DNA of 64,000 nucleotides from Raja brachyura (taxonomy: Eukaryota). The position numbers and the translations under genes were made by a program. Under the pieces are notes generated by a model. That model was not told the origin of the DNA. It made no database searches and worked only from the letters and a program-made list of their open reading frames with translations. The DNA lies in contig OY740810.1 in assembly GCA_963514005.1 (NCBI GenBank), positions 14,198,001-14,262,000 on the forward strand, in the 5' to 3' direction. Below, piece by piece: positions 1,568-63,940 of the stretch. The first letter of the stretch is position 1. Each line of letters starts with the position of its first letter.

Positions 1568-1576
1568 TATATAAAG
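1568..1576 (+). promoter_or_regulatory. Possible TATA box (TATATAAAG) upstream of the mucin gene
   Basis: Motif match in non-repetitive-looking sequence; no transcription-start evidence. Confidence 0.2.
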
Positions 1577-3764: not shown

Positions 3765-3880
3765 TGGGTAGAAAAGGTTTAGAGGAATACGGACCAAATG
3801 CAGGTGAATGGAAGGAACTAACTTACATGGGGATTGTTGGTTGGTTTGGATGAGTTGGACCAAAGGGCCTGTTTCTCTGG
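3765..3880 (+). mobile_element. CR1-type LINE 3' end fragment
   Basis: aaaggtttagaggaatacggaccaaatgcagg...ggatgagttggaccaaagggcctgtttc resembles the chondrichthyan CR1 3' terminus. Confidence 0.6.
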
Positions 3881-4059
3881 CCCATTTTCCGGAAACAATT
3901 ACAAAGTTTGCTAACAGCAGCATCACAGGCACATAGACGCGGACAAATACACCAAAAATATACATTATACAAGACAGTGCACAAATATTTTTTTTTTCAA
4001 ATAAACAAGACACTAGTGAAAAAATACTATTAGAAACAAGTCCATGGTAGTGCAAGAGA

Positions 4060-4535
4060 TAGGCTAGAGTGCTCCTTTGATAAGGTGGAATTAGTGTTGT
4101 GCAGGTCGGTTCAAGAACTTGATCGCTGTTGGAAAGTAGCTGCTGTTGAACCTGGTGAAGTGCAACTTCAGGCTTTCGTACCTCCTGCCCGATGGTAGCT
4201 GTGGGAAGAGGGCCTGGCCCAGATGGTGTGGATCCGTGGTGATGTATGTGCCTTCTTGAGGCAGTGCTTCATGTAGGTATTTTTGATGGAGAAGTGGGAT
4301 GTGCCCGAGATGGACTGGCCTGAGTCCACCACTCTCTGTGGCATCTTGTATTTCTGTGCTCTGGAATTGCCATTCCAGCCCATGATGCAACCGGTTGGGA
4401 TACTTTCTGCAGTGCATCTGTCGAAATTTGTTGGAGTATTCGGTGAAGTTGAATATCTTCTAAAAAAGTAGAGGAACAGGCATGTCTTTGTCATGATTGC
4501 ATCTATGTTCTTGGCCCAGGATAGGTCATCTGATC
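4060..4535 (-). mobile_element. Rex1/Babar- or L2-like LINE, reverse transcriptase C-terminal fragment (frameshifted)
   Basis: Minus-strand translations FDRCTAESIPTGCIMGWNGN..QRVV and DPHH..ALFPQLPSGRRYESL..TRFNSSYFPTAIKFLN fit the DUF1891-type RT tail. Confidence 0.75.
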
Positions 4536-4572
4536 ATTTTGTATAAGAGCATTGCCTTTTCGCGATCTATAG

Positions 4573-4620
4573 ACACATCATTAATCAAGTGCTGTATCAT
4601 GCCTGAAGCTATTGCTGAAG
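4573..4620 (+). CDS. Candidate upstream 48-nt exon (TSLIKCCIMPEAIAE, phase 1-1)
   Basis: ctatag|AC...GAAG|gtaaaa, open and phase-compatible with the PTS exon; no homology support. Confidence 0.3.
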
Positions 4621-4939
4621 GTAAAATTGCATAACCGCAATATTATTTAAAGCCTTGCTTTTGATGTCTATGGACATACCTTGCTGCCTTTGATGCTTTT
4701 GAAATCAAACACTTGCATTGTCTATGGTGTGGCAGAAGTAGAAATGGGAGGACAATACTATTCGATCCAAGAGCGAGATTTTCAACTTTGCTCTGGATCA
4801 GTGTAAACTACAAAGTGAGCAACAACTTCATAAGAGATCCCCTTTCCACTCAATGATATGTTACATCTTGATATGTTTTAAGCTTTGCTGGAAGCTTAAA
4901 ATACGCAAAGAGTGCATGCAGCTATCAACCTTGTACCTT

Positions 4940-5075
4940 ATGTCTAAAGAAGGATTCCAAACCAAAACGCCACCTACTCCTTTTCTCCAGAGATGCTGCC
5001 TGACCCACTGAGTTACCCCAGCATTTTGGGACTATCTTTGATGCAAACCAGGATCTGTAGTTCCTTCCTGCAGAT
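4940..5075 (+). mobile_element. Short Penelope-derived SINE-like element
   Basis: ccttttctccagagatgctgcctgacccactgagttaccccagcattttg...ctgtagttcct; same family as the intronic copies in the array. Confidence 0.65.
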
Positions 5076-5295
5076 ATTAACTTTGGTTGTTCCGAGTTTG
5101 GTTGAGAATTATTGAACCAGTGTACTGCCACAAGGCAAGGTTTGAGCTATTAAAGAAAGGACAACATGGGTCGGGAACACATGCAAAGACCGAAAGAGAC
5201 TATACTAATTCAAAGCATACTAAAACATATATTTCCAGGAAAAAAGTTTTATGTTCTTGCTCCGTGTAAAATAAACATCAATTTTGTTCCAACAG

Positions 5296-6522
5296 CTTCC
5301 AGTTCATCAACAAATAATGAAACATCAGCTGTGAGCACTTCAACAAAGGATATGGGATTCCACCCCAAAATAATATGGATGCAAACATTATCTACCACAG
5401 TTACAAAACCAAAGGCACAAGAGAGTCAAAAGGAAAAGTACCATGGAGCAGCACCGGCTTGTAACAGACCAGTGAATCCGCAGAAAATGCCTACGATATC
5501 TCCAACAACCACTCCAGTTAAAATAACAATTGTGGTAGAAAATGTGCATGGGACAGGAAAGGATTCCTCAATTAACAAAACAATCACTCAAACTCAAACA
5601 CCTACACCTTCCATGGCACCTGTACCCATTATAATACTTATACCTACAAAAACAACTACACCCTCCACAAAATCTACATCCTCCACACCACATATACCCT
5701 ACATTATAACTATACCCTACAAAATACCTACACACTCCACGACAACATCCACACCATCTACAACTACAGTCTCCACAACTGCAGCCTCCACACCACATAT
5801 ACCCTACATAATAACTATACCCTACAAAATACCTACACCCTCCACAACTACATCCACACCTTCTACAACTACAGTCTCCACACCACATATACCCTCCATA
5901 ATAACTATACCCTCCAAAAAGTCTACACCCTCCAAAACTTTTGTTGAAACAACATCTCCAACAACAGTTGGGCAAGAACATATACACGAAGCTCCTTCAT
6001 GTAACATCCCAGTACATCCAATGCAATCTCCCCCAGAATCCACAACAGCAACCACAGCTGAAACTACATCTACAACTTCTCCAAAGGTAATTGTGATAGA
6101 AAATGTACAAAACCAAATAGGTCCAACGTCTGCATCTCCTGAAACACCTACACCTTCCACAACAATTGTAGATAAAACACTGTTCACAGCACCCACACCC
6201 AACCCAAGTGCAACTACAACTGCAGCCAAAACAACATCTCCACATACCCCAAAAATAATTGTGATAGAAAATGTAGAATATCAATCGGAAAGTCCCTCAA
6301 ATAACAGAGCAATCACTCAAGCATCCACATCTACACCCACCCCAACTACAACCGCAGCTAAAGTAATATCTGCACTGGACCCAATAATAATCGTGATAGA
6401 AATCATACAAAATGAAGAAACTGTTCCCGTATGTAACATACGTCAACAACAAATGTCCACAACTATCCCGACAACTACTACAGCTGAACCAACATATACA
6501 ATTTCCACAACAGTTGTTACTG
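5296..6522 (+). CDS. Large Pro/Thr/Ser-rich mucin exon (409 codons, phase 1-1)
   Basis: Acceptor ttgttccaacag|CT at 5295/5296 and donor ACTG|gtaaga at 6522/6523. Lies within ORF 5166-6605 and is very T/S/P-rich. Confidence 0.88.
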
Positions 6523-9500: not shown

Positions 9501-12500
9501 GGAAAACTGAGAAGGTCCGAATAAGGGTCTGGACACAAAACGTCACCCATTCCTTTTTCCAAAGATGCTGAGTTACTCCAGTATGTCCGTCTGAGATGGT
9601 CAATGTTGTGTCACCAATCAGAGTTGAATAGATGTTTTTTTTATGACTTAGATCAAATGCCTTTTGAATACCTGCACTTGAAAAACTATCTTACTAGTGG
9701 ACCTTGACAAATGATTCCCATGTTACACCACTGCTTTCAGTTAGAGAGAAACAGACATTAAAATAACCTGAGAAGCAAATTGCTGATTTATTGGGCAAAG
9801 GATTTTATGACTAGGTCAGCTGTCAAAGAGTGAGATAACAAAAAAAGGATCAAAAGACACATAACAGGTGTACTTTATAAGATCCAATACATTTTAATTC
9901 CAATTGCCTTGGAACATATCCTTGAATTAGTTTGGGGCATTTTATGATTGTACACATTTTTGATGAATTCACAGCTTTTAGTAACATTTTCCAATTGTTT
10001 CTTCAAAATTTTCTTTGCAGAGCCACCAATTGTTCCTGAACAAAATAAGCCAAACAATCAAGAGAATTCAGGTAACTCAGCTACATGCTCTGCATACATC
10101 AAGTATATGGAGATCTCCAAATACTAATTCATAATTCGCAAAGAAACACAAAATATAACCAAAACTAGGCTGTACTCCGCCCACTATCACTACAATGAGT
10201 CAGGTGGTGGATGATCAGGATTGGATCTCCCAGTATGATATTTTATAGCTTTCATTATAATTGAAGGGAAATTGTGGATGAAGAAGGAAAAGTAGAGGCT
10301 TTGATTCCAAAGGGGAGACATAAGAGATTACAGATGCTGGAAACTGGAACAAACAACAAAATGCTGGAGGAACTCAGTAAGTCCGGCAACACCTGTGGAA
10401 GGAAATGGATAGACAACATTTCAGATCTGAACTTGAATGTCAACTGTGCATTCCCCTTCACAGATACTCCTGGAATGCTAGGTTCCAACAGCAGTTTGTT
10501 TTCCCCTTACGATTGTAAAATAAATAATCAAAATAGCAAAAAGCAATGCACAACCTCAGCATGACCGAGACCACTTCACAACAAACCGAGCTCTCATGAC
10601 ATGTAATCTCTGATTTCAAATGTTGAACAAATCAGCTCAAAAATTGGGCTTCTGTCAAGTAATATATCTGAGGGGCAATCTGGTAACAAAACTATGATAC
10701 AACCTACCTCTAATTTTCTTTGTTTTTCCTGATTTCACTGTGCAGCCGAATGGTGAGTTTGTATCAAATGCATCAAACAATTGGCTTATTCTTTCTTCTC
10801 CATCTGTTGCTTAAACTGTGTCGAATTCCAGTACTGGGAAACAGTTTTTAAACTATTTGAAAATTGTGGTACTTTCATCATGCAAAATTGCTTACTGTAT
10901 TTCCACAGATTCATTTCCAATCGAGAAAATAAATGCCATTGATTACAATGTGACATTCATTGTGGAAAGTCTGTCTATTAAAGAAATACAAGCAATGCCC
11001 TTACAAACAGCAACCATGATTTCAGCTGAGGTGAGAGTATTTACAAATTAGTTTTCTGCTGATATATTCCTTATTTGTTCAATTTTTACTTCTCATTTTG
11101 ACCCAATTTTTCTTGCCCACAGCTCACAGATCTGTTTGAGAACTGCAGTTTCAATGCAACTTTCTTAAAATGTGTCGTAAAATCATTCAGGTAACTCACA
11201 ATAACTTTCAAATTAAATCATGAAAATCACATTCCTTTGTCTTCTAATTGTTAATGCACTGACTCCAAATGGCAAACGGGAGAAAGACTGGAGACACTTT
11301 TAAAAAGCCAGACAACTTTTAATAAAGTTTAGCGGGCATTTAACTTACCGGTCGGTTATCCTTGGTCCTGAAAACTCCAATGAGCCAATTAAAATGCCCG
11401 GTCAGCTTAGGAGATTGCCTACGGCTGCTCTCGATTGCCTATAACTATATAGCGATCCCACTCCACTGCACTACGAGTTCAAAAGAACTATGTCGACCAA
11501 TTTTTACTCGCGGAAAATTTTTCAACTTGCTGAAAAATTTTCCTCGACCAAACTGAGGCCGCGAGTATGCGGGAACTTCCCTCGAGCATGAACGAGAGTT
11601 CCAGTGACCTCATAGGACCTCCTAGGACCACGTGTCGACCATGCTGCGAGTTTGAGTCGAGGGCAAACTCTTCTAAACTGGCAGATTAGGTTGCCGCCAT
11701 GGGACCTTAAGGATCACATCAAGTGCAGCGACCACAGGAGATGAGGTTAGAGACTGGGGTGTGAAAGGTAGGGACAAGGGGAACTCTTTCGTTGATCAGT
11801 TTGGTTGAGGGGAATGCAAGAGCAGATCTATAAGAGACGTGGATGAGGGATCCATCTAAACCAGCCAGGGGTAATCCACGTTTACTCGAGAAAAAGGACA
11901 TCTCAGGTGCCCCAGAAAGGGAAAGCATCATGGGAGCAGATGCGGCGACGATGGGCAAACTAAGCATTGGATTTCTATGACCATTGCTTAGACTCTTATA
12001 ATCAGTCAAGCAACATTTCAGCTATGCTCTTGATAAAGGGTCTGTCCCACTTTCCCGAGTTATTCACAAATTCTCCCAAGTTTTCCCCTTGATTCAAGTT
12101 CTCAGAATGTTCGTAACGAGTCAGTAGGATACCGTAGCAGTCCGTGGATATATCGTAGAGGCTCGTTATGCCAGTCATAGGTACTCGAGGCTATTTCTTT
12201 ACTCGTGGACATTTTTGATCTGGCTGGAAAAAACGTCCCGACTTCCCTGTAGCCCCGAATACCTACGGCCTCGTTACGAACATTCTGCAAGTTTGAATCA
12301 AAGGGAAAACTCGGGAGAATTTGTGAATACCTCAGGTGATTTTGTGAATAACTCAGGAAAGTGGGACAGGCCCTTAACATTGCAAACAACTTTGCACTCA
12401 TTTATTTTTCACTTTGTACAAATATCTTATGCTTTTTTGCAGAGAGGTAACAGTTAACAGCACCAGAGTGACTGCTGATTGTTCATTCCAAAACGTGTCC

Positions 12501-15500
12501 AACATGGAACCCATCAAACCAGAAGAGATTTATGATGCAGTTAGAGAGGAGACCAATAACCTTTCCTCACTGGGGCCATACGCACTGCAAAGCTACAGCC
12601 TCCTCGTAGATGGTACATATCAAAATATTCCTCAGTGTTTTTCTTCATGTTGTACTTCATGCAATCTATAGTAACTGCTGAATTGTAGTCAACCTCTTTG
12701 ATATTTACATATTCAGATCAGCGAGAACCAGGTATGATATCCTATAAAATCTGGGAAAGCGAATTTAAAGTAATTCATAATCTTGCTCTTCAGAGCCAGC
12801 CTAGCATAAAGATTCTGCCTCTCTGGTTTGATCCCATTACAAAAGCAGTTACTTCCTGATAAGTGTTCAAGGTGCAAGTAAAAAGACATCTCCTCCAATA
12901 AAGGGTGACATTTGTTTAAAAGAAGAAACATAGTGCTGGAATAACTCAGCTGTTCAGGCAGCATCACTCAGGACTCTTCTTCAAGTCTGGACTTCTTCAG
13001 ACTGATTGTGGAGGGTTGGGGGGAGAAGAAAGCTGGAAGAGAGGAGGGGCAGTACAAAGCACATCAGTTAATTGGTAAACACAGGTGAGGTGGCGATTTG
13101 ATAAACAGAAGTTTGGACAAAGTCCGGCGATTAAAAAACATAAGATGTGAGACAAAGGTTTGAAGAGTTTTGAATTTGAGGCCGGAGGAAGGAATGTAGA
13201 AGAAGGCAAGGTGGGGGGGAGCTCAATAGGTGCGAGTCCAGATTAATCACTGTGGATTGGGGGTGCTGCGTTGTTAGAGGTTACCTGAACTTGAGGAATT
13301 TAAAGTTCATATCATTGGCTTAAAACCTACCTATGTTTCTTTGTTTAATTTCAGATTTCACCATCCAGCCCAATGTCAACGGTGAGTTTGGATCAAATGC
13401 ATCAAACAATTGGCTCACGTTACATTTTTTCTTTTCGGCCTGTTGCTAAAGCTGTGTGAAATTCCAGTACTGGGAAACAGATTTTAAACTAATTGAAAGT
13501 TGTGGTACTTTCAGCATGCTAAATTGCTTATTCTATTTCCACAGTTCCAGTTCCAATTGAGATAACAAATCCCATTGTTTTTAACATGATGTTCACTGTT
13601 GACAGTCTGTCTTTTGAAGAAGTAGAAGTAAACCCTTCAGGAACAGCAACCACGATTGAAACTGAGGTGAGAGATTTTACATTAGGTTTTTGCTAACATA
13701 TTACTTCATCGTTCTCTTTTTATATCTTATTCTGATACAATTTTTCCTGCCCTCAGCTCTCAAAACTGTTTGAAGACAGTAGTATCGAAGCAACGTTCTT
13801 TAACTGTGCGGTAAAATCATTCAGGTAACTCCGATTAAATCATGAAAATTCCATTCCTTTACCTTCCAAGTATTAACACAGACAATTCCAACATGCAAAA
13901 GCAGTAATCTCTTGAGCACATGTCCCACAAATATCATTGCAGAGTCAATAAAAATTCTAACAGAGAGAGACACCACATGCTGGGTTATCTCAGCGGGTCT
14001 GGAGGCAAATCTGGAGAACAAGGCGAGGCAAAGTTTTGGGTCGGGCCCTTCTTCTGACTGATAGGGGTGAGAAAGCTGGCAGAGAGGTAGGATGGAGATA
14101 ACAAAGTGTGGCAAGTGATAGGAGGATACAAGTGATGGGGAGGTCAAATGGTTGGACAAATTCTAGAGATGAAAAGGTTTAATATAGGGAGTTAAGCATA
14201 GAAGAGGACAGAAATATAAAGCTAGATGAAAGAAGAAAAATTAGACGTTGAGATTAGTGGGTGGAGGGGAAAGGGTCAAATGGGTGCACACCCAGATGTA
14301 GCAAAGGGAAGAGTTGGGAGAAAGTGGCGGGGAGCATTTGAAGTATGGTATGTAAAATTGGAAATTCATTGTACATAACGTCAGGCTCTAAGGTACTTAT
14401 TGGAATATGAGGTGCTGTTCCTCCAGATTGAATGTGGTCCCGTTCTGGCAATGTATGAGGCCCGACACAGACAGGTCATTATGGGAATGGGGAGTTAAAC
14501 ATTTTTGCAAAAGGAAGATCCAGCAGGCCTTGGTTGGCCCTGCACAAGTGTTCGGCAAAACAGTCGACTAGACGATACTTGGAGACGTAAAGGAGACCAC
14601 ATCAAGGTCAGCGACTGCAGGAGATAAGGTTAGAGACTGGTGTGTGAAGCTAAGGATGAGGGGAACTCTATCATTGTTCAGTTTGGGTAAGGGGGATGCA
14701 AAAGCAGAACTATAGGAGATGTGAGTGAGGGATCCATCTAAGTCGGCTAGGGGTAATCCACGTTTACTCAAGAAAAAGGACATGCAGATGCCCTAGAATG
14801 GGAAAGCCTTGTGGGAGAAGATGTGGCAAAGATGGATAAATTAAAACATTGGATTTTCCTGACTATTGCTGCTTCTCTTATAATCAGTCACAGCAACATA
14901 TCAGCTGTGCTCTTGCTAATCCTGCAAACAACATTGCACTGAATTATTTTACACTTATCACAAATGTCTTTTGCTTTTTGCAGAAGTGCATTGGTTCACA
15001 GCACCAGCGTGACAGCTGATTGTTCATTCCAAAACGTGTCAACCATTGAACCCATCAAACGAGAAGATGTTTATGGTGTATTTAGCGAGAAGACCAATGA
15101 CATTTCCTCACTGGGACCATACGTACTGCAAAGCTACAGCCTCTATGTAGACGGTACTTATCAAAATATTCCATGGTGTTTCTCTTCATATTGTATTTGT
15201 GCAATCTACGGTAACTATTGATTTAGTCAAGTTCTTCGGTATTTACATATTTAGATCAGGGACAACCAGGGATATCCGATGGGATCTGAGAAGGAAACCT
15301 TAAAATTATTCACAGTCTTGCCTTTTGGAGCCTGCCTATGCACAATTACTCAGCCTCATTGTTTGGACCGAATGACAAGAGCGGTTATTTCCTGATAATG
15401 TTCAAGATGCAGGGGGAAAAAAACCTCCTCTCTTAAAAGTTTACATGTTTTTGAGAGGAAGTCACAATGTGCTGGAGTAACTCAGCAGGTCAGGCAGAAT

Positions 15501-51500: not shown

Positions 51501-54500
51501 ATATTTCTCTGTTTGTTTTCAGATTTCAATGTACAGCCCAATGTCAATGGTGAGTTTGAATCAAATGCATGAAACAATGGGCTCACGTTGCATTTCTTCT
51601 TCTCCATCTGTTGCTTAAATTCTGTAGAAATCCAGTACTGGGAAACAGTTTTTAAACTATTCGAAAATCACGGTACTCACAACACGCTAAATTGCTTAAT
51701 CTATTTCCACAGTTCCTGTTCCAATCGAGGTAACAAATCCCAATAAATACAACGTGACTTTCATTGTTGACAATCTGTCGATTGAAGAAATTCAAGCAAA
51801 CCCTTCAGAAACAGCAACCATGATTGCAAATGAGGTGAGAGAGTTTACCAATTAGTTTACTGATGATGTTTTACTTCATGGTACCCTTTTATTTCTCATT
51901 CTGACTCAATTATTATTACTGCCTTCAGCTCACCAACCTGTTCGAAAATAGCAGTATCAATGCTACATTCTTGACATGTGTTGTGGAATCCTTCAGGTAA
52001 CTCAAAATAACATTCCTATTAAATTATAAAAAGCGCATCCTTTAATTTAACGCTGAATAATTCCAATTTGCAAACACATTAAACGCATAAGCAAATTTCC
52101 CACAAATATCACGTAGAATTAATATAAATTCCACCAGAAAAAGGTACAATGTGCTCAAGACTCCTGGTGAGTCAGGCAGCAAATCTGTAAACACTATAAA
52201 AACTATCCTTGCTCCATCTGGGTGAGGGTGATGTGAGAGCAGATCTAGAGGAGATTTGGGTAAGGGATCCATCTAAAACAGCCAAGGCTAATCTACATTT
52301 ACATTAGAAAGAGGACATCTTGGATGTCCTAGGATGAGAAGTCACATCGTGGGTGAAGTTGGGGCGGAGACGGACAAATTAAGTCGGACACCAGTATTCA
52401 GCCACGGCAACATTTCAGCTGTGTTCTTGTTGGCACTTCAAACAACTTTGCATTAAATAATTTTGCACTTATCACAAATGTCTTTTACTTTTTCGCAGAG
52501 AGGAAGTGCTTAACAGCACCAGAGTGACAGCTAAATGTTCATTCCAAAACATGTCAACAATGGAACCCATCAACCGAGAAGATGTTTATGATGTATTTAG
52601 CGAGAAGACCGATGACATTTCCTCACTGGGGCCATACATATTGCAAAGCTACAGCCTCCATGTAGACGGTACTTATCAAAATATTCCTTGGTGTTTCTCT
52701 TCATATTGTTTTTGTGCAACCTACGGTAACTATTGATTTAGTCAAGATCTTTGGTATTTACATATTTAGATCAGGGAAAACCAGGTATGATATCCTATAG
52801 GATCTGACAAAGCACACCTTAAAATCATTCACAGTCTTGCCTTTCGGAGCATGCCTTTGCATAAACACACTGCCTCACTTGTATGACCCATTCACAAAAG
52901 GGTTTTCTTCCTGGTAAATGTTCAAGGAGAGGCAAAAAAAAAACCCCATTAAAAAGTTACTTGCTTTTATAGAAGAAACAAAATGCTAGAGTAACTCAGC
53001 GGGTCAGGCAGCATCACTGGAGAATGTGAATGGGTGACGTTGCAGCTCGAGATCCTTCTTCAGACTGAATGTGGGAGGGAGGGGGGAGAAGAAAGCTGGA
53101 AGAGAAGGGAGGCAGTACAAAGCATGTCATTAATACGTGAACACAGGTGAAGTAGAGTTTAGATACGCAGAAGGTTGGACAAATGATAGAGACGAAAAAA
53201 CATAAAGTATGAGGGGAGGGGTTTGAAGAGTTACAAATTTGAAGCGAGAAATAGGAATGTAGATGGGGGGGCAAGCCTAGATGTGGTTGTGGTTGGTGGG
53301 TTTTTAAAGGTTGCCTAAACTTGAACATTTAAAGTTCTACCTATATTTCTCTGTTTGTTTTCAGATTTCAATGTACATCCCAATGTCAATGGTGAGTTTG
53401 TATCAAATGCATGAAACAATGGGCTCACATTGCATTTGTTCTTCTCCTTCTGTTGCTTAAACTCTGTAGAAATCTCGTACTGGGAATCAGTTTTTAAACT
53501 ATTTGAAAATTGTGGTACTCACAACATGCTAAATTGCTTAATCCATTTCCACAGTTCCAGTTCCAATCGAGGTAACAAAGCCCAATGAATACAACGTGAC
53601 TTTCATTGTTGACAATCTGTCTATTCAAGAAATTCAAGCAAACCCTTCAGAAACAGCAACCATGATTGCAAATGAGGTGAGAATTTACCAAATAGTTTTC
53701 TGCTGATATAGTACTTATTCATCCCCTTTGTTATGTCTCATTCTAACACCATTTTTCTTGCCTCAGCTCACAGACCTGTTTGAGGACAGCAGTATCGATA
53801 CAACATTCTTAAAATGTGCCGTGGTATCATTCAGGTAACTCACAATAATTTTCCGATTAAATCATGAAAATTGCATTCCTTTGTCTCCATATTGTTAATT
53901 CACAGTGATTCCAAATGGGAAAGATGATAATCTCATGAACACATTTCCTACAAATATCAGTGCAAAGTCAATATAAATTCTCACAGAAAAAGACATGATG
54001 TGCTGGAGTATCTCAGCGGGACAGTCGGGAAATCTGGAGAACATGGCTTGGCAGAGTTCTGGGTCGGGCCCTTCTTCAGACTGATTGAAGTAGGGGTGAG
54101 AAAGCTGCAAGAGAGGTGGAAAGGGGATGACAAAGTGTGGCAAGTGATAGTACGATACAGGTGATGCGGAGTGAGCAGTTGATTGACCAATGGTTGCAGA
54201 AACTCCAGAGATGAAAACACAAAAGGTTCAATACAGGTATAGGTATAGAAGGTTCAATACAGGTCAGGTATAGAAGTCAAATTAATTATGAAAGTTGAGG
54301 AAGCATCGTTGAAGGGGATAATGGGGGGAGTAGAGGGGGGAAGGGAAAGCGAATAATGGGTGCACAGTCAGGTGTAGCATAGGGAAGAGTGGGGGGAAAT
54401 TGAGGGGGAAGAGAGGCATTTGTATGTTCACACGTAAAATTGAACAACTCATTGTTCATACAGTTAGTTTGTAGGTTGTCACATAAAATGATTCATATTG

Positions 54501-57500
54501 TTAGACTCCAAACCTACACATCAGATTATGAGGTGTATTTCCTCCAGCTTAAATGTGGTCTCCCTCTGGCTATCGATGAGGCTCGACACAGACACGTCGA
54601 TATGGGAATGGGAAGGGGAGTCAAAATGTTTTGCAACCGGGGAACCCAGCAGGCATTGGTCGACCCTGCACCTCTTCGGAAAAAAACTGTCACCTAGACG
54701 ATGCTTGGACTTGCCGATGTAAAAGGGACGACATCTAGAGCAGCAAATGCAGGATATGGGTTTAGAGAATGGTGTGGGAAATCTAAGCATGAGGGGAACT
54801 CTCTCCTTGGACAGTCTGGGTGAGGGGGATGCAAGAGCAGAACTACAGGAGACGTGGGTGAGGGATCCATCTGAGACAGCACAGGGTAATCCACAACTAC
54901 TAAAAAAAAGGACATGTCAGATGCCTAGAATGGGAAAGCATCGTGGAAACAGATGCGCTGGAGATGAATAAACTGAGTATTGGACTTCTCTGACCATTAC
55001 TTCTACCCCTGTAACCAGCTGCAGCAACATTTCAGGTGTGCTCTTCCTAACATTGCAACTACTTTGCACTAAATTATTTTTGTAAATGTGTTTTGCTTTT
55101 TTGCAGAGAGGTAATGGCTAACAGCACCAGAGTGACAGCTAATTGTTTATTCAAGAATGTGTCCACCATGGAACCCATCAACCAAGAAGAGGTTTATGAT
55201 GTATTTAGAGAGAGGACCCATAACATTACCGCACTGGGACAATATCCATTGCAAAGTGACAGCCTCTATGTAGAAGGTACTTATCAAAATAATCCTCAAT
55301 CTTTTTCTATGTATTCTACTTCACGCAATCTACCGTAGGTGTTGACGGAGTCAAGTCCTTTGGTAATTACATATTCAGATCCGGGAGGATCAGGTATGAT
55401 GTCCGATGGGCTTTGGGAAAGTGAATCTTGAAGTCATTCATGAAAGTCATCCTGACTAACAGGAGGGAGAAATAGGCGCATGTCCATCTGGGTCACCGGA
55501 GAGGGAGGTGGGGTTGGATGCGATTTGTTCGAGGATACTTAAAATGGGAAAACTCAATGTTCATCCGGTTGGTTGTAAACTGAGTATGTTTCTTTCTTTG
55601 CTTCCAGGTTACACCATGCCACCCATTGTCATTGGTGAGTTTGAGCTTCCATTGAACTGTTTTGGGTTTCTTTGGTTATTCACTGCTTTCATGACACATC
55701 CAGCACCCATATTCTGCAAGAATATTTGTTGAAACTCATGAAAAGATGCCTTGCCCTTTGCTCACAAAAACAATCTTGATTGAGAAATGAATGAATTGAA
55801 AACTTTCCTTGCTGTTCGCAAGGTTTTTTTTAACAAAAGCAATTTTTATACTGATTTCTCAGCCAAAGTTAGATACAATCCACAAATTTTCCAGGCGACA
55901 TCTAGTGCAGAATGTCACTCAAATGTATCAATCAATTGCCTCAGGTCACATTTATTCTTTTTGATCTGTTGCTAAGCTGCCACAAATTCCATTACAGGGA
56001 AACTAAACTATTGAAATATCATGGTACTTGCAGCAAGCTGAATTACTTCCTCTATTTCCACAGTTCCAGTCGAGGAATCAAATCCCACTACTTACAACGT
56101 GACATTCATTGTTGACAATCTGTCTATTGAAGAAATTCAACCAAATCCTTCAGAAACAGCAACCATGATTGCATCTGAGGTGAGAGAGTTTACAAGTTAG
56201 TTTACTGATGATGTTTTACTTCATCGTACCCTTTTGTTTCTCATTCTGACTCAATTATTATTACTGCCTTCAGCTCACCGATCTGTTCGAAAATAGCAGT
56301 ATCAATGCTACATTCTTGACATGTGTTGTGGAATCCTTCAGGTAACTCAAAATAACTTTCCTATTAAATGATAAAAAACACATCCTTTAATTTCACTTAT
56401 TAACGCTCAATAATTCCAATTTGCAAACACATTAAACGCATAAGCAAATTTCCCACAAATATCATGTAGAATTAATATAAATTCTACCAGAAAAAGGTAC
56501 AATGTACGGGAATCTCCTGGTGAGTCAGGTAGCAAATCTGTAAACCCTGGCGAGGCAAAGTTTTGTAGTAGGGGTTCCAGTCCTCGGTTTTTCGGCAACC
56601 TGCTACGTCTATAACAGCCGCCGGAAGTCACAGAAAATATCGCTTAAGTGGGACAGGCCCATAATGCTATAAGCTACTCCTTGGAATATGAAGTACTATT
56701 CCTCCAGTTTAAGTGTGGCCTCATTCTGGCAATGGATGAGGCCCAGGACCGAAAGTTTGTTATGAAAATGCAAAGGGGAATTAAATTATCTAGAGGAGAT
56801 TTGGGTAAGGGATCCATCTAAAACAGCCAAGGCTAATCTACATTTACATTAGAAAGATGACATCTTGGATGTCCAAGGATGGGAAGTCACATCGTGTGTG
56901 AAGTTGGGGCGGAGACGGACAAATTGAGTCGGATTTCTCTGACCATTGCTTAGACGCCAATACTCAGCCACGGCAACATTTCGCTGTGTTCTTGCTGGCA
57001 CTTTGCACTAAATGCTTTTACACTTATCACAAATGTCTTTTACTTTTTCGCAGAGAGGGAGTGGTTAACAGCTCCAGAGTGACAGCTAAATGTTCATTCC
57101 AAAACATGTCAACAATGGAACCCATCAACCGAGAAGATGTTCATGATGTATTTAGCGAGAAGACCGATGACGTTTCATCACTGGGGCCATACGTACTGCA
57201 AAGCTACAGCCTCTATGTAGATGGTACTTATCAAAATATTCCATGGTGTTTCTCTTCATATTGTATTTGTGCAATCTACAGTAACTATTGATTAATAGTC
57301 ACGTTCTTTGGTATTTACATATTTAGATCAGGGACAACCAGGTATGATATCCTGTAGGATCTGAGAAAGCAAACCTTAAAATCATTCACAGTCTTGCCCT
57401 TCGGAGCATGCCTTTGCATAAACACACTGCCTCACTGGTATGACCCACTCACAAAAGGGTTTTCTTCCTAATAAATTTTCAAAGAGAGGCAAAACAAATA

Positions 57501-60500
57501 CCACATTAAAAAGTTACTTGCTTTTATTGAAAAAACAGAGTGCTAGAGTAACTCAGTGGGTCAGGCAGCATCACTGGAGAATGTGAATGGGTGACGTTTC
57601 AGCTCGAGATCCTTCTTCTGACTGATTGTGGGAGGAGGGGAAAGCAGGAAGAGAAGGGAGGCAGTACAAAGCAAGTCATTAATAGGTGAACACAGGTGAA
57701 GTAGAGTTTAGATACGCAGAAGGTTGGACAAATGATAGACGAAAAAACAAAAAGTGTGAGGAAAAGGATTGAGGAGTTGCAAATTTAAAGCCAGAAATAG
57801 GAATGTAGGTGGTGGGCAAGGGGGAGGAGTTTAATAGGTGTGTGCCCAGGTGTGGTTGTGGTTGGTGGGTTTTTGAACATTTAAAGTTCTACCTATATTT
57901 CTCTGTTTGTTTTCAGATTTCAATGTAAAGCCGAATGTCAATGGTGAGTTTGAATCAAATGCATGAAACAATGGGTTCACGTTGCATTTGTTCTTCTCCA
58001 TCTGTTGCTTAAATTCTGTAGAAATCCAGTACTTTGTAACAGTTTTTAAACTATTTGAAAAGCATGGTACTCACAACATGCTAAATTGCTTAATCTATTT
58101 CCACAGTTCCAGTTCCAATCGAGGTAACAAATGAATACAACGTGACTTTCATTGTTGACAATCTGTCTATTGAAGAAATTCAAGCAAACCCTTCAGAAAC
58201 AGCAACCATGATTGCAAATGAGGTGAGAGAGTTTACCAATTAGTTTACTGATGATGTTTTACTTCATCGTAGTCTTTCATTTCTCATTCTGACTGAATTA
58301 TTATTACTGCCTTCAGCTCACCGACCTGTTTGAAAATAGCAGTATCAATGCTACATTCTTGACATGTGTTGTGGAATCCTTCAGGTAACTCAAAATAACT
58401 TGCATATTAAATGATAAAAACTGCATCCTTTAATTCCCACTTGTTAACGCTCAATAATTCCAATTTGCAAACACATTAAACTCATAAGCAAATTTCCCAC
58501 AAATATCACGTTGAATTAACATAAATTCTACCAGAAAAAGGTACAATGTACTGGAGTCTCCTGGTGAGTCAGGCAGCAAATCTGTAAACCCTGGTGAGGC
58601 AAAGTTTTATAGTAGGGATTCCAGTCGTCTTTTTTTCGGCGACCTGCTACGACTATAACAGTGGCCGGCAGTCGTCCAAAATATCGCTTAAGTGGGACAG
58701 GCCCATAATGCTCTAAGATACTCCTCGGAATATGAGGTGCTGTTCCTCCAGTTTAAGTGTGGCCTCTCTCTGGCAATGGATGAGGCCCAGGACAGACAGT
58801 TTGTTATGAAAATGGAAAGGGGAGTTAAACTGTTTTTGAACTGGGATTTCCAGCTGACCTTGGCCAACTATCCACGTGTTCACCGAAAAAGTCACCTTGA
58901 CACTGTTTGGTCTTGCTAACGTATAGGTCACCACATAAGGTGCATCAACTACAGTAGGTGGTGTTAGCGACAGGTGGGGTATAAACTAAGGATGGGGGAA
59001 ACTATCCTTGCTCCGTCTGGGTGAGGGTGATGTGAGAGCAGATCTAGAGGAGATTTGGGTAAGGGATCCATCTAAAATGTCCAAGGTTAATCTACATTTA
59101 CATTCGAAAGAGATCATCTTGGAAGTTGGGGCGGAGACGGACAAATTGAGTCGGATTTCTCTGACCATTGCTTTGACACCAGAACTCAGCCACGGCAACA
59201 TTTCAACTGTGCTCTTGCTGGCACTTCAAACAACTTTGCACTAAATTCTTTTACACTTATCACAAATGTCTTTTACTTTTTCGCAGAGAGGAAGTGGTTA
59301 ACAGCACCAGAGTGACAGCTAAATGTTCATTCCAAAACATGTCAACAATGGAACCCATCAACCGAGAAGATGTTCATGATGTATTTAGCGAGAAGACCGA
59401 TGACGTTTCATCACTGGGGCCATACGTACTGCAAAGCTACAGCCTCTATGTAGACGGTACTTATCAAAATATTCCATGGTGTTTCTCTTGATAATGTATT
59501 TGCAATCTACGGTAACTATTGATTAATAGTCACGTTCTTTGGTATTTACATATTTAGATCAGGGACAACCAGGTATGATATCCTGTAGGATCTGAGAAAG
59601 CAAACCTTAAAATCATTCACAGTCTTGCCCTTCCGAGCATGCCTTTGCACAAACACACTGCCTCACTGGTATGACCCACTCACATAAAGGGTTTTCTTCC
59701 TAATAAATTTTCAAAGAGAGGCAAAACAAATACCACTTTAAAAATTTAATTGCTTTTATTGAAAAAACAGAGTGCTAGAGTAACTCAGAGGGTCAGGCAG
59801 CATCACTGGAGAATGTGAATGGGTGACGTTGCAGCTCGAGATCCTTCTTCTGACTGGTTGTGGGAGGAGGAGAAAGCTGGAAGAGAAGGGAGGCAGTACA
59901 AAGCATGTCATTAATAGGTGAACACAGGTGAAGTAGAGTTTAGATACGCAGAAGGTTGGACAAATGATAGACGAAAAAACAAAAAGTGTGAGGAAAAGGA
60001 TTGAGGGGTTGCAAATTTAAAGCCAGAAATAGGAATGTAGGTGGTGGGCAAGGGGGAGGAGTTTAATAGGTGTGTGCCCAGGTGTGGTTGTGGTTGGTGG
60101 GTTTTTGAACATTTAAAGTTCTACCTATATTTCTCTGTTTGTTTTCAGATTTCAATGTACAGCCCAATGTCAATGGTGAGTTTGAATCAAATGCATGAAA
60201 CAATGGGTTCACGTTGCATTTGTTCTTCTCCATCTGTTGCTTAAATTCTGCAGAAATCCAGTACTTTGTAACAGTTTTTAAACTATTTGAAAAGCATGGT
60301 ACTCACAACATGCTAAATTGTATAATCTATTTCCACAGTTCCAGTTCCAATCGAGGTAACAAATGAATACAACGTGACTTTCATTGTTGACAATCTGTCT
60401 ATTGATGAAATTCAAGCAAACCCTTCAGAAACAGCAACCATGATTGCAAATGAGGTGAGAGAGTTTACCAATTAGTTTACTGATGATGTTTTACTTCATC

Positions 60501-63500
60501 GTAGTCTTTCATTTCTCATTCTGACTGAATTATTATTACTGCCTTCAGCTCACCGACCTGTTTGAAAATAGCAGTATCAATGCTACATTCTTGACATGTG
60601 TTGTGGAATCCTTCAGGTAACTCAAAATAACTTGCATATTAAATGATAAAAACGGCATCATTTAATTCCCACTTGTTAACGCTCAATAATTCCAATTTGC
60701 AAACACATTAAACTCATAAGCAAATTTCCCACAAATATCACGTTGAATTAACATAAATTCTACCAGAAAAAGGTACAATGTACTGGAGTCTCCTGGTGAG
60801 TCAGGCAGCAAATCTGTAAACACAGGTGAGGCAAAGTCTTATAGTAGGGATTCCAGTCGTCTGTTTTTCGGCGACCTGCTACGACTATAACAGTGGCCGG
60901 CAGTCGTCCAAAATATCGCTTAAGTGGGACAGGCCCATAATGCCCTAAGCTACTCCTCGGAATATGAGGTGCTGTTCCTCCAGTTTAAGTGTGGCCTCTC
61001 TCTAGCAATGGATGAGGCCCAGGACAAACAGTTTGTTATGAAAATGGAAAGGGGAGTTAAATTGTTTTTGAACTGGGATTTCCAGCTGACCTTGGCCAAC
61101 TATCCACGTGTTCACCGAAAAAGTCACCTTGACACTGTTTGGTCTTCCTAACGTATAGGTCACCACATAAGGTGCATCAACTGCAGTAGGTGGTGTTAGC
61201 GACAGGTGGGGTATAAACTAAGGATGGGGGAAACTATCCTTGCTCCGTCTGGGTGAGGGTGATGTGAGAGCAGATGTAGAGGAGATTTGGGTAAGGGATC
61301 CATCTAAAATGTCCAAGGTTAATCTACATTTACATTCGAAAGAGATCATCTTGGAAGTTGGGGCGTAGACGGACAAATTGAGTCGGATTTCTCTGACCAT
61401 TGCTTTGACACCAGTATTTTGCCACGGCATCATTTCAGCTGTGTTCTTGCTGGCACTTCAAACAACTTTGCACTGAATTCTTTTACACTTATCACAAATG
61501 TCTTTTACGTTTTCGCAGAGAGGAAGTGGTTAACAGCTCCAGAGTGACAGCTAAATGTTCATTCCAAAACATGTCAACAATGGAACCCATCAACCGAGAA
61601 GATGTTCATGATGTATTTAGCGAGAAGACTGATGACATTTCATCACTGGGGCCATACGTATTGCAAAGCTACAGCCTCTATGTAGACGGTACTTATCAAA
61701 ATATTCCATGGTGTTTCTCTTCATATTGTATTTGTGCAATCTACAGTAACTATGGATTTATAGTCACATTCTTTGGTATTTACATATTTAGATGTGGGAC
61801 AACCAGTGCTATGATATCCTATAGGATCTGAGAAAGCAAACCTTAAAATCATTCACAGTCTTGCCCTTCGGAGCCTGCCTTTGCACAAATATACTGCCTC
61901 ACTGGTATGACCCACTAACAAAAGGGTTTTCTTCCTGATGAATTTTCAAAGAGAGGCAAAACAAATACCCCATTAAAAAGTTACACGCTTTTATAGAAGA
62001 AACAGAGTGCTAGAGTAACTCAGTGGGTCAGGCAGCATCACTGGAGAATGTGAATGGGTGACGTTTCAGCTCGAGATCCTTCTTCTGACTGGTTGTGGGA
62101 GGAGGAGAAAGCTGGAAGAGAAGGGAGGCAGTACAAAGCATGTCATTAATAGGTGAACACAGGTGAAGTAGTGTTTAGATACGCAGAAGGTTGGACAAAT
62201 GGTAGACGAAAAAACAAAAAGTGTGAGGAAAAGGATTGAACAGTTACAAATTTGAAGCCAGAAATAGGAATGTAGATGGAGGGCAAGGGAGAGGAGTTTA
62301 ATAGGTATGTGGCCAGGTGTGGTTGTGGTTAGTGGGTTTTTAAAGGTTGCCTAAAGTTGAACATTTAAAGTTCCACCTATATTTCTCTGTTTGTTTTCAG
62401 ATTTCAATGTACAGCCCAATGTCAATGGTGAGTTTGAATCAAATGCATGAAACAATGGGCTCACGTTGCATTTGTTCTTCTCCATCTTTTGCTTAAATTC
62501 TGCAGAAATCCAGTACTCGGAAACAGTTTTTAAACTATTTGAAAATCGTGGTACTCACAACATGCTAAATTGCTTAATCTATTTCCACAGTTCCAGTTCC
62601 AATCGAGGTAACAAATCAATACAACGTGACTTTCATTGTTGACAATCTGTCTATTGAAGAAATTCAAGCAAACCCTTCAGAAACAGCAACCATAATTGCA
62701 AATGAGGTGAGAGAGTTTACCAATTAGTTTACTGATGATGTTATCCTTCATGGTACCCTTTTATTTCGCATTCTGACTCAATTATTATTATTGCCTTCAG
62801 CTCACCGACCTGTTCGAAAATAGCAGTATCAATGCTACATTCTTGACATGTGTTGTGAAATCCTTCAGGTAACTCAAAATAAATTTCATATTAAATGATA
62901 AAAACCGCATCCTTTAATTTCCACTTGTTAACGCTCAATAATTCCAATTTGCAAACACATTAAACTCATAAGCAAATTTCCCACAAATATCACGTATAAT
63001 TAATATAAATTCTACCAGAAAAAGGTACAATGTACGGGAGTCTCCTGGTGAGTCAGGCAGCAAATCTGTAAACCCTGCCAAGGCAAAGTTTTAGAGTAGG
63101 GATTCCAGTCGTCTCTTTTTCGGCGACCTGCTACGACTATGACAGTGGCCGGCAGTCGTCGAAAATATCCCTTAAGTGGGACAGGCCCATAATGCTCTAA
63201 GCTACTCCTCGGAATATGAGGTGCTGTTCCTCCAGTTTAACCGTGGCCTCTCTCTGGCAATGGATGAGGCCCAGGACAGACAGTTTGTTATGAAAATGGA
63301 AAGGGGAGTTAAATTGTTTTTGAAGCGGGATTTCCAGCAGACCTTGGCCAACTATCCACGTGTTCACCGAAAAAGTCACTATGACACTATTTGGTCTTGC
63401 TAACGTATAGGACACCACATATGGTGCATCAAATGCAGTAGGTGGTGTTAACGACAGGTGGGGTGTAAACTAAGTTTGGGGGAAACTATCCTTGCTCCGT

Positions 63501-63940
63501 CTGGGTGAGGGTGATGTGAGAGCAGATCTAGAGGAGATTTGGGTAAGGGATCCATCTAAAATGCCCAAGGTTAATCTACATTTACATTCGAAAGAGGACA
63601 TCTTGGAAGTTGGGGCTGAGACAGACAAATTGAGTCGGATTTCTCTGACCATTGCTTTGACACCAGAACTCAGCCACGGCAACATTTCAACTGTGCTCTT
63701 GCTGGCACTTCAAACAACTTTGCACTAAATTCTTTTACACTTATCACAAATGTCTTTTACTTTTTCGCAGAGAGGAAGTGGTTAACAGCACCAGAGTGAC
63801 AGCTAAATGTTCATTCCAAAACATGTCAACAATGGAACCCATCAACCGAGAAGATGTTCATGATGTATTTAGCGAGAAGACCAATGACGTTTCATCACTG
63901 GGGCCATACGTACTGCAAAGCTACAGCCTCTATGTAGACG
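5296..63940 (+). CDS. MUC16: Mucin-16 (CA125)-like giant mucin: PTS exon plus at least 23 tandem SEA domains; partial (5' exons uncertain, 3' end beyond window)
   Basis: Spliced consensus repeat VPVPIEVTNPNKYNVTFIVDNLSIEEIQANPSETATMIANE|LTDLFENSSINATFLTCVVESFR|EEVVNSTRVTAKCSFQNMSTMEPINREDVYDVFSEKTDDISSLGPYVLQSYSLYVD resembles MUC16 SEA repeats (FTLNFTITNL..LF.NSS....GC.....R......T.VD..C...LY.ELS..TH.IT.LGPY.LDRDSLYVNG). Exons have GT-AG boundaries with compatible phases. The symbol reflects similarity, not proven orthology. Confidence 0.8.
5681..5935 (+). repeat. Coding minisatellite (STPHIPYIITIPYKIPT..., 3 copies, periods 105 and 90 nt)
   Basis: ctccacaccacatataccct recurs at about 5681, 5786 and 5876. 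Confidence 0.85.
6875..7021. other. Assembly gap (147 N) in the intron after the PTS exon
   Basis: Run of N. Confidence 0.99.
7940..8118 (-). mobile_element. CR1 LINE 3' end with agacaat-type tail
   Basis: agacaatagacactaggtgcaggagtaggccattcagcccttcgagccagcacc...ccccatatcccc. Confidence 0.7.
8980..9420 (+). mobile_element. Decayed Penelope-like element fragment
   Basis: Traces of the PLE linker region (SPPSQSKGKVSP; ...TTFPCNCRSCKT), homologous to the reverse complement of the array intron fragments. Confidence 0.5.
10021..10071 (+). CDS. 51-nt spacer exon EPPIVPEQNKPNNQENS (phase 1-1)
   Basis: Acceptor ttttctttgcag|AG, donor TCAG|gtaact; open and frame-compatible between the PTS exon and SEA exon A1. 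Confidence 0.75.
10909..13381 (+). CDS. SEA module 1 (divergent)
   Basis: Exons A 10909-11030, B 11123-11190, C 12443-12612, L 13355-13381. Confidence 0.85.
11270..11708. mobile_element. CpG-rich DNA-transposon (Harbinger-like) fragment in the module 1 B-C intron
   Basis: Unique to module 1, replaces part of the intron consensus, and ends ...gccgccatgggacc, similar to the gtgggacaggccc terminus. Confidence 0.5.
12037..12374. mobile_element. PIF/Harbinger-type MITE, 338 bp, TAA target-site duplication
   Basis: TAA|AGGGTCTGTCCCACTTTCCCGAGTTATTCACAAA...TTTGTGAATAACTCAGGAAAGTGGGACAGGCCCT|TAA; other units show the empty site (ctctttctaacattgc). Confidence 0.88.
13545..15875 (+). CDS. SEA module 2 (divergent)
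   Basis: A 13545-13666, B 13757-13824, C 14984-15153, L 15849-15875. Confidence 0.85.
16045..18129 (+). CDS. SEA module 3 (Y-type exon C: THNITALGQYP)
   Basis: A 16045-16160 (shifted acceptor), B 16253-16320, C 17604-17773, L2 18103-18129 (GYTVPPIVI). Confidence 0.8.
17017..17191. mobile_element. Inverted pair of SINE-like elements forming a 175-bp palindrome
   Basis: gtagacacaaaatgctggagtaac...acccttc|gaagggt...gttactccagcactttgtgtctac. Confidence 0.8.
18564..20706 (+). CDS. SEA module 4 (X-type)
   Basis: A 18564-18679, B 18774-18841, C 19778-19947, L 20680-20706. Confidence 0.85.
19067..19163. mobile_element. Half Harbinger MITE (single terminal repeat aagtgggacaggccc followed by TAA)
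   Basis: Shares its terminal motif with the 12037-12374 MITE; recurs in modules 9, 10, 13, 16, 17 and 20-23. Confidence 0.6.
20870..23611 (+). CDS. SEA module 5 (Y-type)
   Basis: A 20870-20991, B 21084-21151, C 22419-22588, L 23585-23611. Confidence 0.85.
22005..22320 (-). mobile_element. Penelope-like GIY-YIG endonuclease fragment (homologous remnants in the other B-C introns)
   Basis: ORF 21978-22298: ICCSRCGLLYIGKYKHHLG...VAKHFDSPSHSH..VSV..L...KLEE..LI, typical of the PLE GIY-YIG C-terminus. Confidence 0.8.
23775..26516 (+). CDS. SEA module 6 (Y-type, near-identical to 5)
   Basis: A 23775-23896, B 23989-24056, C 25324-25493, L 26490-26516. Confidence 0.85.
26680..29422 (+). CDS. SEA module 7 (Y-type)
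   Basis: A 26680-26801, B 26894-26961, C 28229-28398, L 29396-29422. Confidence 0.85.
29586..31594 (+). CDS. SEA module 8 (Y-type)
   Basis: A 29586-29713 (128 nt), B 29806-29873, C 31077-31243 (167 nt), L2 31568-31594. Confidence 0.85.
32023..34054 (+). CDS. SEA module 9 (X-type)
   Basis: A 32023-32138, B 32233-32300, C 33245-33414, L 34028-34054. Confidence 0.85.
34218..36324 (+). CDS. SEA module 10 (X-type)
   Basis: A 34218-34339, B 34434-34501, C 35415-35584, L 36298-36324. Confidence 0.85.
36488..38200 (+). CDS. SEA module 11 (X-type, short B-C intron)
   Basis: A 36488-36609, B 36704-36771, C 37283-37452, L 38174-38200. Confidence 0.85.
38364..40422 (+). CDS. SEA module 12 (Y-type)
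   Basis: A 38364-38485, B 38578-38645, C 39895-40064, L2 40396-40422. Confidence 0.85.
39312..39720 (-). mobile_element. Penelope-like GIY-YIG fragment (also at 45723-46130 and 54521-54930)
   Basis: ERVPLMLRF..ICCSRCRPFYIGKSKHRLGD..PVAKHFDSPSHSHIDVSV..KLEEIHLII. Confidence 0.8.
40852..42738 (+). CDS. SEA module 13 (X-type)
   Basis: A 40852-40967, B 41062-41129, C 41831-42000, L 42712-42738. Confidence 0.85.
42902..44614 (+). CDS. SEA module 14 (X-type, short B-C intron)
   Basis: A 42902-43023, B 43118-43185, C 43697-43866, L 44588-44614. Confidence 0.85.
44778..46836 (+). CDS. SEA module 15 (Y-type)
   Basis: A 44778-44899, B 44992-45059, C 46309-46478, L2 46810-46836. Confidence 0.85.
47266..49288 (+). 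CDS. SEA module 16 (X-type)
   Basis: A 47266-47381, B 47476-47543, C 48488-48657, L 49262-49288. Confidence 0.85.
49452..51549 (+). CDS. SEA module 17 (X-type)
   Basis: A 49452-49573, B 49668-49735, C 50640-50809, L 51523-51549. Confidence 0.85.
51713..53391 (+). CDS. SEA module 18 (X-type, short B-C intron)
   Basis: A 51713-51834, B 51929-51996, C 52499-52668, L 53365-53391. Confidence 0.85.
53555..55634 (+). CDS. SEA module 19 (Y-type)
   Basis: A 53555-53676, B 53767-53834, C 55107-55276, L2 55608-55634. Confidence 0.85.
56064..57943 (+). CDS. SEA module 20 (X-type)
   Basis: A 56064-56179, B 56274-56341, C 57054-57223, L 57917-57943. Confidence 0.85.
58107..60175 (+). CDS. SEA module 21 (X-type)
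   Basis: A 58107-58222, B 58317-58384, C 59287-59456, L 60149-60175. Confidence 0.85.
60339..62427 (+). CDS. SEA module 22 (X-type)
   Basis: A 60339-60454, B 60549-60616, C 61519-61688, L 62401-62427. Confidence 0.85.
62591..63940 (+). CDS. SEA module 23 (X-type; array continues beyond window)
   Basis: A 62591-62706, B 62801-62868, C 63771-63940. Confidence 0.85.

Follow-up and report, generated by a model that had tools for sequence, protein, structure and literature searches.

Which protein is encoded by the long tandem array of SEA modules on contig OY740810.1 of the skate Raja brachyura? The stretch analysed here, called the window, comprises 64,000 nucleotides (positions 14,198,001 to 14,262,000 of the contig, assembly GCA_963514005.1). 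A first-pass annotation of these letters had proposed a MUC16-type mucin of a cartilaginous fish, and the proposal stood up: significant matches among PDB sequences are all MUC16, and the closest relatives are in other skates. We consider it very probable that the window covers the central part of an intact MUC16 (CA125) family gene of a skate, likely encoding a membrane-tethered epithelial mucin.

Exon anatomy and reading frame

Self-comparison showed that everything from about 10.7 kb to the end of the window belongs to a single degenerate tandem array on the plus strand. With the exons of unit 2 used as seeds, 23 SEA units were located, all in frame, the last one ending at 63940. Each unit is made of a linker exon and exons A, B and C, with the phases 1-0-2-1 given by the annotation. 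Its exon sizes of 122, 68, 170 and 27 nt hold for exon B (68 nt in 23/23 units), for exon C in 22 units (167 nt in the other one) and for the linker exon (27 nt in 22/22 units, unit 1 having a relic only, with no acceptor), but exon A is 122 nt long in only 13/23 units, 116 nt in 9/23 and 128 nt in 1/23. The exon length changes are of five kinds, each a multiple of 3.

Upstream of the array lies a mucin exon rich in Pro, Thr and Ser (PTS) of 1227 nt or 409 codons, phase 1-1, with 23.5% T, 12.7% P and 12% S (48% together). A PTS part N-terminal to the SEA array, a trait of the family, is present in the window. With the acceptor of unit 3 moved 6 nt downstream, 93/93 exons of the whole model were bounded by AG and GT, and the joined frame ran through 3367 codons with 0 stops and no frameshift. 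The annotated order of a PTS exon and at least 23 in-frame SEA modules was borne out, a 51-nt exon between the two having been missed.

The SEA repeat has a period of 127-130 amino acids (aa), with a 9-residue linker exon and without a long Pro/Ser/Thr linker. Both cysteines of the annotated two-cysteine loop are invariant (23/23 units), and the loop between them is 18 residues long in 22/23 units; in unit 8 it is 17. The Y-type motif quoted in the annotation occurs exactly in 2/23 units (12 and 19) and as variants in six others (3, 5-8 and 15). N-glycan sequons number 120 in the model, of which 118 are outside the PTS part, mostly 4-6 per SEA module. The GSVVV-type motif of the single self-cleaving SEA type (MUC1, MUC13, MUC17) was found in 0/23 window modules.

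Public relatives are labelled below as P0003 (Amblyraja radiata XP_032902719.1), P0149 and P0007 (Amblyraja), P0001, P0002, P0010 and P0130 (Leucoraja) and P0005 (Pristis). The Pfam model PF01390, suggested with the annotation as a check, gave a best E value of 0.096 on single window exons (1/7 queries) and scored above the cut-off on the orthologues P0001-P0003, with 23 stretches in P0003. No convincing plus-strand match to the first 30 residues of P0003 was obtained by tblastn in 1-5295, where a signal-peptide exon was sought. There were no tRNA or Rfam matches within the window. Contigs of DNA run X3 showed 0 differences to the pieces of 5200-15107 listed for comparison, so these pieces are real genomic sequence.

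Relatives, chromosome and family membership

Exon C of unit 19 is 70-80% identical to 'mucin-16-like' proteins of Leucoraja erinacea (2 matches among 3 candidates), and the cluster of those proteins also contains Amblyraja radiata XP_032902719. The window model and this Amblyraja protein are 74% identical over 3510 columns, the PTS part and the 51-nt exon included. The RefSeq 'mucin-16-like' entries XP_032902719.1 (Amblyraja) and XP_055514215/607-611 (Leucoraja) represent the same gene, with the PTS part, the 51-nt exon, units 1-2 one-to-one and the repeat subtypes in common. They differ in that the order and number of middle units are peculiar to the window genome, and the public models are split into pieces. 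XP_032902719 and P0020 have a hydrophobic N-terminus.

When Leucoraja P0002 was compared with 177,635 PDB sequences by phmmer, seven matches were obtained at E<=10. The four significant ones (E 6e-10 to 3e-8) are all human or mouse MUC16 SEA, and MUC1 was not among the matches at E<=10. An AlphaFold model of P0002 (mean predicted local distance difference test score 84) was compared with 48,161 chains by full alignment. MUC16 SEA came first (Z 16.9, 16.8 and 16.0; root mean square deviation 2.0-5.2; 110-120 aligned), the next SEA being that of TMPRSS6 (Z 13.3) and then another protease SEA (Z 10.8); Foldseek likewise put MUC16 SEA first. Among solved structures the SEA modules are thus closest to MUC16 SEA both by sequence and by the P0002 model. 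SEA families missing from the sequence matches may nevertheless be relatives.

From 1.84 billion representatives, searched without an index, 127 proteins were obtained at E<=0.001. The named relatives span lamprey, chimaera, sharks, rays, bichirs, sturgeons, paddlefish, lungfish, frogs, turtles, lizards, birds and mammals. Where the C-terminal end is complete, it has a single membrane helix and a short tail containing two tyrosines and a histidine, and it aligns with mammalian MUC16. Quick trees of the C-terminal end (46 rows, and 41 rows in a second tree from which rows without a detected helix were dropped) broadly follow the vertebrate species tree. Helix and tail are carried by P0149, P0130 and P0010, whose SEA modules show 75-78% identity to window unit 10. 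All Leucoraja pieces are on one contig of 31,094,262 bp, the exact size of Leri_29C; LER29 corresponds to chicken 28 (PMC10115646), and chicken Muc16 was located on chromosome 28 (PMC1552070). For the synteny check proposed with the annotation, the match to chicken 28 holds at chromosome level for the Leucoraja orthologue, and no flanking gene was identified in the window. The gene belongs to the b paralogue lineage of cartilaginous fishes, on the chromosome matching chicken 28.

Membership of the MUC16 family is well supported by these data. A separate multi-SEA mucin outside the family, which acquired a MUC16-like SEA cassette independently, would account for the identity of only 30-34% between window modules and mammalian SEA modules and for a period of 127-130 aa and not 156 aa; the searches returned no outgroup sequences such as the SEA domains of agrin, MUC1, MUC13 or IMPG, and the trees took in MUC16-type proteins only. 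Such a mucin is scarcely credible in view of a membrane segment and tail conserved from skates to mammals, matching chromosomes, and graded relatives across lamprey, chimaera, bichirs, sturgeons, lungfish, frogs, reptiles, birds and mammals.

As judged from the relatives, the MUC16 gene of the window would have its signal-peptide exon farther upstream. Past the window end it would have further SEA modules, the last of them with a GSVVV-type motif, and then a single membrane helix and a short two-tyrosine tail. The window stops short of the 3' end, and a terminal membrane helix is missing from Amblyraja XP_032902719 and from several Leucoraja models, as would be expected of a secreted or truncated MUC16 paralogue whose SEA array has no anchor, the glycoprotein being soluble and part of the mucus layer. 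However, the final residues of P0001 and P0002 correspond to the intron start in the window, the exon C donor having been read through, and this marks both as broken gene models. On the same contigs, the separate models P0149 and P0130 open with the same repeat type and do have the anchor, and Pristis P0005 joins 28 SEA modules of the b lineage to the anchor in one model. A secreted form is therefore quite unlikely, and a membrane-tethered mucin is preferred.

The tethered protein would have its 409-aa PTS part O-glycosylated, and its SEA modules would form a long N-glycosylated chain holding the PTS part off the apical membrane. It would serve as barrier and lubricant, and its ectodomain would be freed by self-cleavage at the last SEA.

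The exon build was compared with that of human MUC16, whose repeat is encoded by five exons and has 156 aa with cysteines at 59 and 79, behind a PTS part of about 12,000 aa (PMC3431878), and which has 19 repeats and a 19-residue loop (PMC10829539). The skate repeat, of four exons and 127-130 aa, does not have this form. The repeat period among named MUC16 proteins of other species is about 120 to 155 aa, so that five exons and 156 aa are a human trait and not family-defining. The annotation had given the human repeat five exons of about 125/68/173/36/66 nt, and the number five is confirmed; the sizes were not found in print, the accessible text of PMC3431878 giving only five exons and 156 aa. 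These sizes sum to 468 nt or 156 codons, which fits the published repeat, and the 18-residue skate loop against 19 in human fits 170 nt against the annotated 173 nt.

Ends of partial SEA domains in gene models were mapped to the SEA profile, on which the skate introns fall at 44/45 and 67/68. Breaks lay <=2 positions from the skate introns in 34/61 cases of the mammal class and 18/29 of the sauropsid class, ~12% being expected by chance; these breaks are not independent, 51/60 'mammal' labels were assigned from the nearest named reference, and initial-Met starts were excluded. Indirectly, the intron positions within the SEA repeat appear to match those of human MUC16. In ray-finned fish (3/8) and lamprey (1/5) the breaks near skate introns were not significant.

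Splicing was checked over 5200-17900 with two DNA runs and with the runs X1 and X2, which come from related organisms and are presumed to be RNA, although one of them is flagged 'probably DNA'. Run X1 contains a GT..AG joint from exon C of unit 2 to the next linker exon (15153 to 15849), and X2 has a joint at the same place; depth at the exon C2-linker joints was 0 in both DNA runs. Both X1 and X2 also have pieces that end at exon borders (13544-13666, 16039-16160, 12440-12611 and 5293-6516). The joints support splicing of orthologues, not of the copy in the window genome.

Several points weigh against a MUC16 gene of the tethered, self-cleaving kind, among them the failure to find human exon sizes in print, the dependence among gene-model breaks with the results in ray-finned fish and lamprey, and the sampling of the trees. 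Splicing is seen in single contigs that belong to other organisms, one of the runs bearing the flag mentioned. The window has neither the signal-peptide exon nor the membrane exons, both of which were taken from relatives, and synteny is at chromosome level, for Leucoraja rather than for the window. Pairwise ratios of nonsynonymous to synonymous substitution between units are 0.54-0.72 by a simple counting method, which indicates weak constraint, though the frame is undamaged. For self-cleavage the evidence is the motif itself, and human MUC16 is cut adjoining the membrane and not in the last two SEA domains (PMC4456727).

Turnover of the array and features of the window

The introns had been annotated as near-identical between units, and the array as expanded independently and recently. 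Median pairwise intron identity is 85% (linker-A), 77% (A-B), 72% (B-C) and 85% (C-linker), with a median pairwise coding identity of 86% between units, and intron pairs at >=95% identity number from 14/253 (intron B-C) to 47/253 (intron A-B). Near-identical introns throughout were rejected on these medians, high identity being confined to recent blocks: three 2905-bp copies (98.9-99.8%), a 12.4-kb block (96.5%) and a 5.3-kb block (98.0%). The start of the 2905-bp series falls within exon C of unit 4, and the three 26-nt exon stubs that it has left, each with a donor, mark duplication breakpoints.

In a FastTree tree of 288 SEA modules, in which a long branch of Polypterus sits within the b group, units 1 and 2 of the window have one-to-one partners in Amblyraja and Leucoraja. 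Y-type subtypes are common to the window, Amblyraja and Leucoraja, and most other window units cluster among themselves within subtypes. A wholly independent recent expansion was rejected on these shared units and subtypes, and what remains of the annotated claim is that the last duplications are recent (blocks of 96-99.8%). Because units and subtypes are common to other skate genera, the data fit a long-running turnover of an already multi-copy old array rather than a fresh expansion. A multi-SEA array was found in every lineage sampled. Distal modules form lineage-specific clusters in lamprey, bichir, paddlefish, lungfish and turtle, and membrane-adjoining modules group by position. The array likely grows and shrinks through unequal crossing-over, which would keep the frame because each four-exon cassette begins and ends in phase 1.

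Only 5/2905 bases distinguish unit 5 from unit 6, and units 9 and 16 are identical in coding sequence, as they might be if the copy number were partly an assembly artefact or the gene a young pseudogene; the intron that follows the PTS exon also contains a gap of 147 N, and the read check covered 5200-17900 only. Other blocks, however, differ by 1-3.5% with indels, 93 exons are without stops or frameshifts, and the Amblyraja and Pristis models have 23 and 28 modules. We give this explanation very little credence and regard the array as part of an intact gene.

The features are listed in Table 1. In unit 3, CAC stands at the usual acceptor of exon A (16036-16045), and the exon would be rescued by an in-frame AG lying 6 nt farther downstream; a run X1 contig spans the full 122-nt form of this exon (16039-16160). 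The 147-N gap is at 6875-7021, and the Amblyraja model has no exon there. Very high summed DNA-run depth was seen at about 7750-8170, 11140-12400, 15380-15800 and 16650-17500; these intronic stretches are high-copy interspersed repeats, some of them co-duplicated with SEA units. The 51-nt exon replaces the linker relic of unit 1, and its peptide recurs later in Amblyraja P0003 and Leucoraja P0001. A larger duplication may have included the 51-nt exon.

Table 1. Exons, SEA units and exon relics located in the window.
Feature	Position	Strand	Remark
PTS (mucin) exon, 1227 nt, phase 1-1, internal 90-105-nt repeats	5296..6522	+	aligns with N-terminal PTS of Amblyraja P0003; run X2 contig over 5293-6516
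51-nt linker exon, PTS to SEA unit 1, phase 1-1	10021..10071	+	same peptide in P0003 and P0001
Relic of 27-nt linker exon before unit 1; donor intact, acceptor AG lost, likely skipped	10732..10752	+	absent from Amblyraja model
SEA unit 1; exons 10909-11030, 11123-11190, 12443-12612	10909..12612	+	one-to-one with unit 1 of Amblyraja and Leucoraja
SEA unit 2; exons 13355-13381, 13545-13666, 13757-13824, 14984-15153	13355..15153	+	one-to-one with unit 2 of Amblyraja and Leucoraja
SEA unit 3; exon A acceptor CAC, shifted exon A 16045-16160	15849..17773	+	
SEA unit 4	18103..19947	+	
SEA unit 5, Y-type, 2905-bp tandem block	20680..22588	+	
Orphan 3' stubs of exon C, 26 nt, donor intact; duplication breakpoints	22824..22849, 25729-25754, 28635-28660	+	preceded by purine-rich sequence; likely unspliced
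SEA unit 6; 99.8% identity with unit-5 block	23585..25493	+	
SEA unit 7	26490..28398	+	
SEA unit 8; exon A 128 nt, exon C 167 nt	29396..31243	+	
SEA unit 9	31568..33414	+	
SEA unit 10	34028..35584	+	
SEA unit 11	36298..37452	+	
SEA unit 12, Y-type	38174..40064	+	
SEA unit 13	40396..42000	+	
SEA unit 14	42712..43866	+	
SEA unit 15, Y-type	44588..46478	+	
SEA unit 16	46810..48657	+	
SEA unit 17	49262..50809	+	
SEA unit 18	51523..52668	+	
SEA unit 19, Y-type	53365..55276	+	exon C alone matches human MUC16 SEA (8vm1, E 1.4e-4)
SEA unit 20	55608..57223	+	
SEA unit 21	57917..59456	+	
SEA unit 22	60149..61688	+	
SEA unit 23; gene continues beyond window end	62401..63940	+	

Family history and comparison with known mucins

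The C-terminal tree contains three groups of cartilaginous-fish sequences: lineage b (Scyliorhinus, Pristiophorus, Pristis and three skates; support 100), lineage a (support 96, two shark subgroups) and a second chimaera gene. The a-type paralogues, such as Amblyraja XP_032902718.1, have the same domain order and the same GS-type last SEA and lie on the same Amblyraja contig; they differ in a period of ~140 aa, in only 43% identity to window unit 10 and in forming a separate clade. Two or more MUC16 paralogues were seen on same-size contigs in Amblyraja (P0007, P0003, P0149), Heterodontus (P0145, P0147), Cetorhinus (P0027, P0163) and Mustelus (P0013, P0160), and bichirs have several MUC16 models too. 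The paralogues of cartilaginous fishes are likely to be tandem clusters.

Under the label 'mucin-2-like', Lethenteron reissneri XP_061407377 (P0070) combines a PTS start with 14-15 two-cysteine SEA modules and the MUC16 membrane segment and tail. The best PDB matches of its SEA modules are MUC16 (E 2e-5), with MUC1 at E 0.5-0.7. A Lampetra planeri protein (P0140) is 97% identical to it, and P0140 and Lethenteron XP_061407292 (P0131) have MUC16-type SEA arrays. These lamprey proteins, 'mucin-2-like' or unnamed, are likely mis-annotated MUC16, and the family likely reaches back to lampreys. The annotated age of the cassette, older than the split of cartilaginous and bony vertebrates, is supported by relatives in both groups, and the cassette is probably older still. 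No hagfish or invertebrate relative was found, a word-indexed search with the lamprey C-terminal region giving Lampetra planeri only (1 match among 8000 candidates scored). Teleosts, gar and bowfin are missing among the named relatives; since most of the 127 matches are unnamed, four of them nearest to ray-finned references, teleost loss is only a lead.

The GSVVV-type motif is in the last SEA of 28/32 named non-amniote proteins and in the second-last SEA of 4/4 sauropsids, three proteins without a detected helix having been dropped from the count. A DS variant of it is in the second-last SEA of 2/3 mammals, and the GS-type motif is missing from the last SEA in 3/3 mammals. Self-cleavage driven by such motifs is established for MUC1 (PMC4456727), and by analogy the motif may drive it in the MUC16 relatives.

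We lean slightly towards the following history. MUC16 would be pan-vertebrate and predate the split of lampreys and jawed fishes, with a cluster in cartilaginous fishes. Its ancestral form would have had MUC1-like self-cleavage at a membrane-adjoining GSVVV-type SEA; amniotes would have gained one more SEA behind it, and in mammals the motif would have decayed to the non-cleaving DSVLV. The compact skate repeat would represent SEA beads without a Pro/Ser/Thr linker.

MUC16 has been dated to before the bird-mammal split (PMC3431866, citing Duraisamy 2006), was reported missing from the fish then examined (PMC1552070) and has been called an orphan mucin (PMC9417175). The accessible text of a proteomic study of shark skin mucus contains 0 mentions of MUC16 (PMC10707392). 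The supplement of the little-skate genome paper already lists Muc16-1 and Muc16-2 as differentially expressed in fins (PMC10115646). In its SI Table 5, which the accessible text ties to anterior versus posterior pectoral fin, the rows of both genes (LE21675, LE21907) have log2 fold changes near 6. As 'mucin-16-like' proteins of sharks and skates are already in RefSeq and in this supplement table, the basic fact is not new. No published account of MUC16 in cartilaginous fish or lamprey was found in the literature searched, as judged by titles and the openings of abstracts (partial coverage, few subscription papers); nor, within that coverage, which left supplements of other genome papers outside its scope, were the orthology evidence, the lamprey member, the paralogue cluster or the cleavage-site history.

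The evolutionary significance is modest, the family being known and the skate gene an additional member. Together with its relatives and the lamprey protein, it would move the MUC16 family to the base of vertebrates. This set offers a natural series in which to study the function of the SEA repeat and its cysteine loop, the region that carries the CA125 epitope, and the GS-type last SEA provides a possible explanation for the non-cleaving DSVLV site of human MUC16.

MUC1, MUC13 and MUC17 resemble the skate protein in having PTS, SEA and a membrane helix, and the non-amniote MUC16 relatives share with them a GSVVV-type motif near the membrane. They have a single SEA (PMC4456727) against 23 here. 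Human MUC16 (7SA9, 8GKL, 8VM1) and mouse MUC16 (1IVZ) have the same order of PTS and tandem SEA, two invariant loop cysteines and the same fold. With human MUC16 the close skate relatives also share the membrane segment and tail, and by the indirect test the intron positions of the skate repeat may match as well. The skate protein differs from human MUC16 in a PTS part of 409 against about 12,000 aa, a loop of 18 against 19 residues, at least 23 repeats against 19, the absence of a long Pro/Ser/Thr linker and, in its relatives, a GS-type motif in the last SEA.

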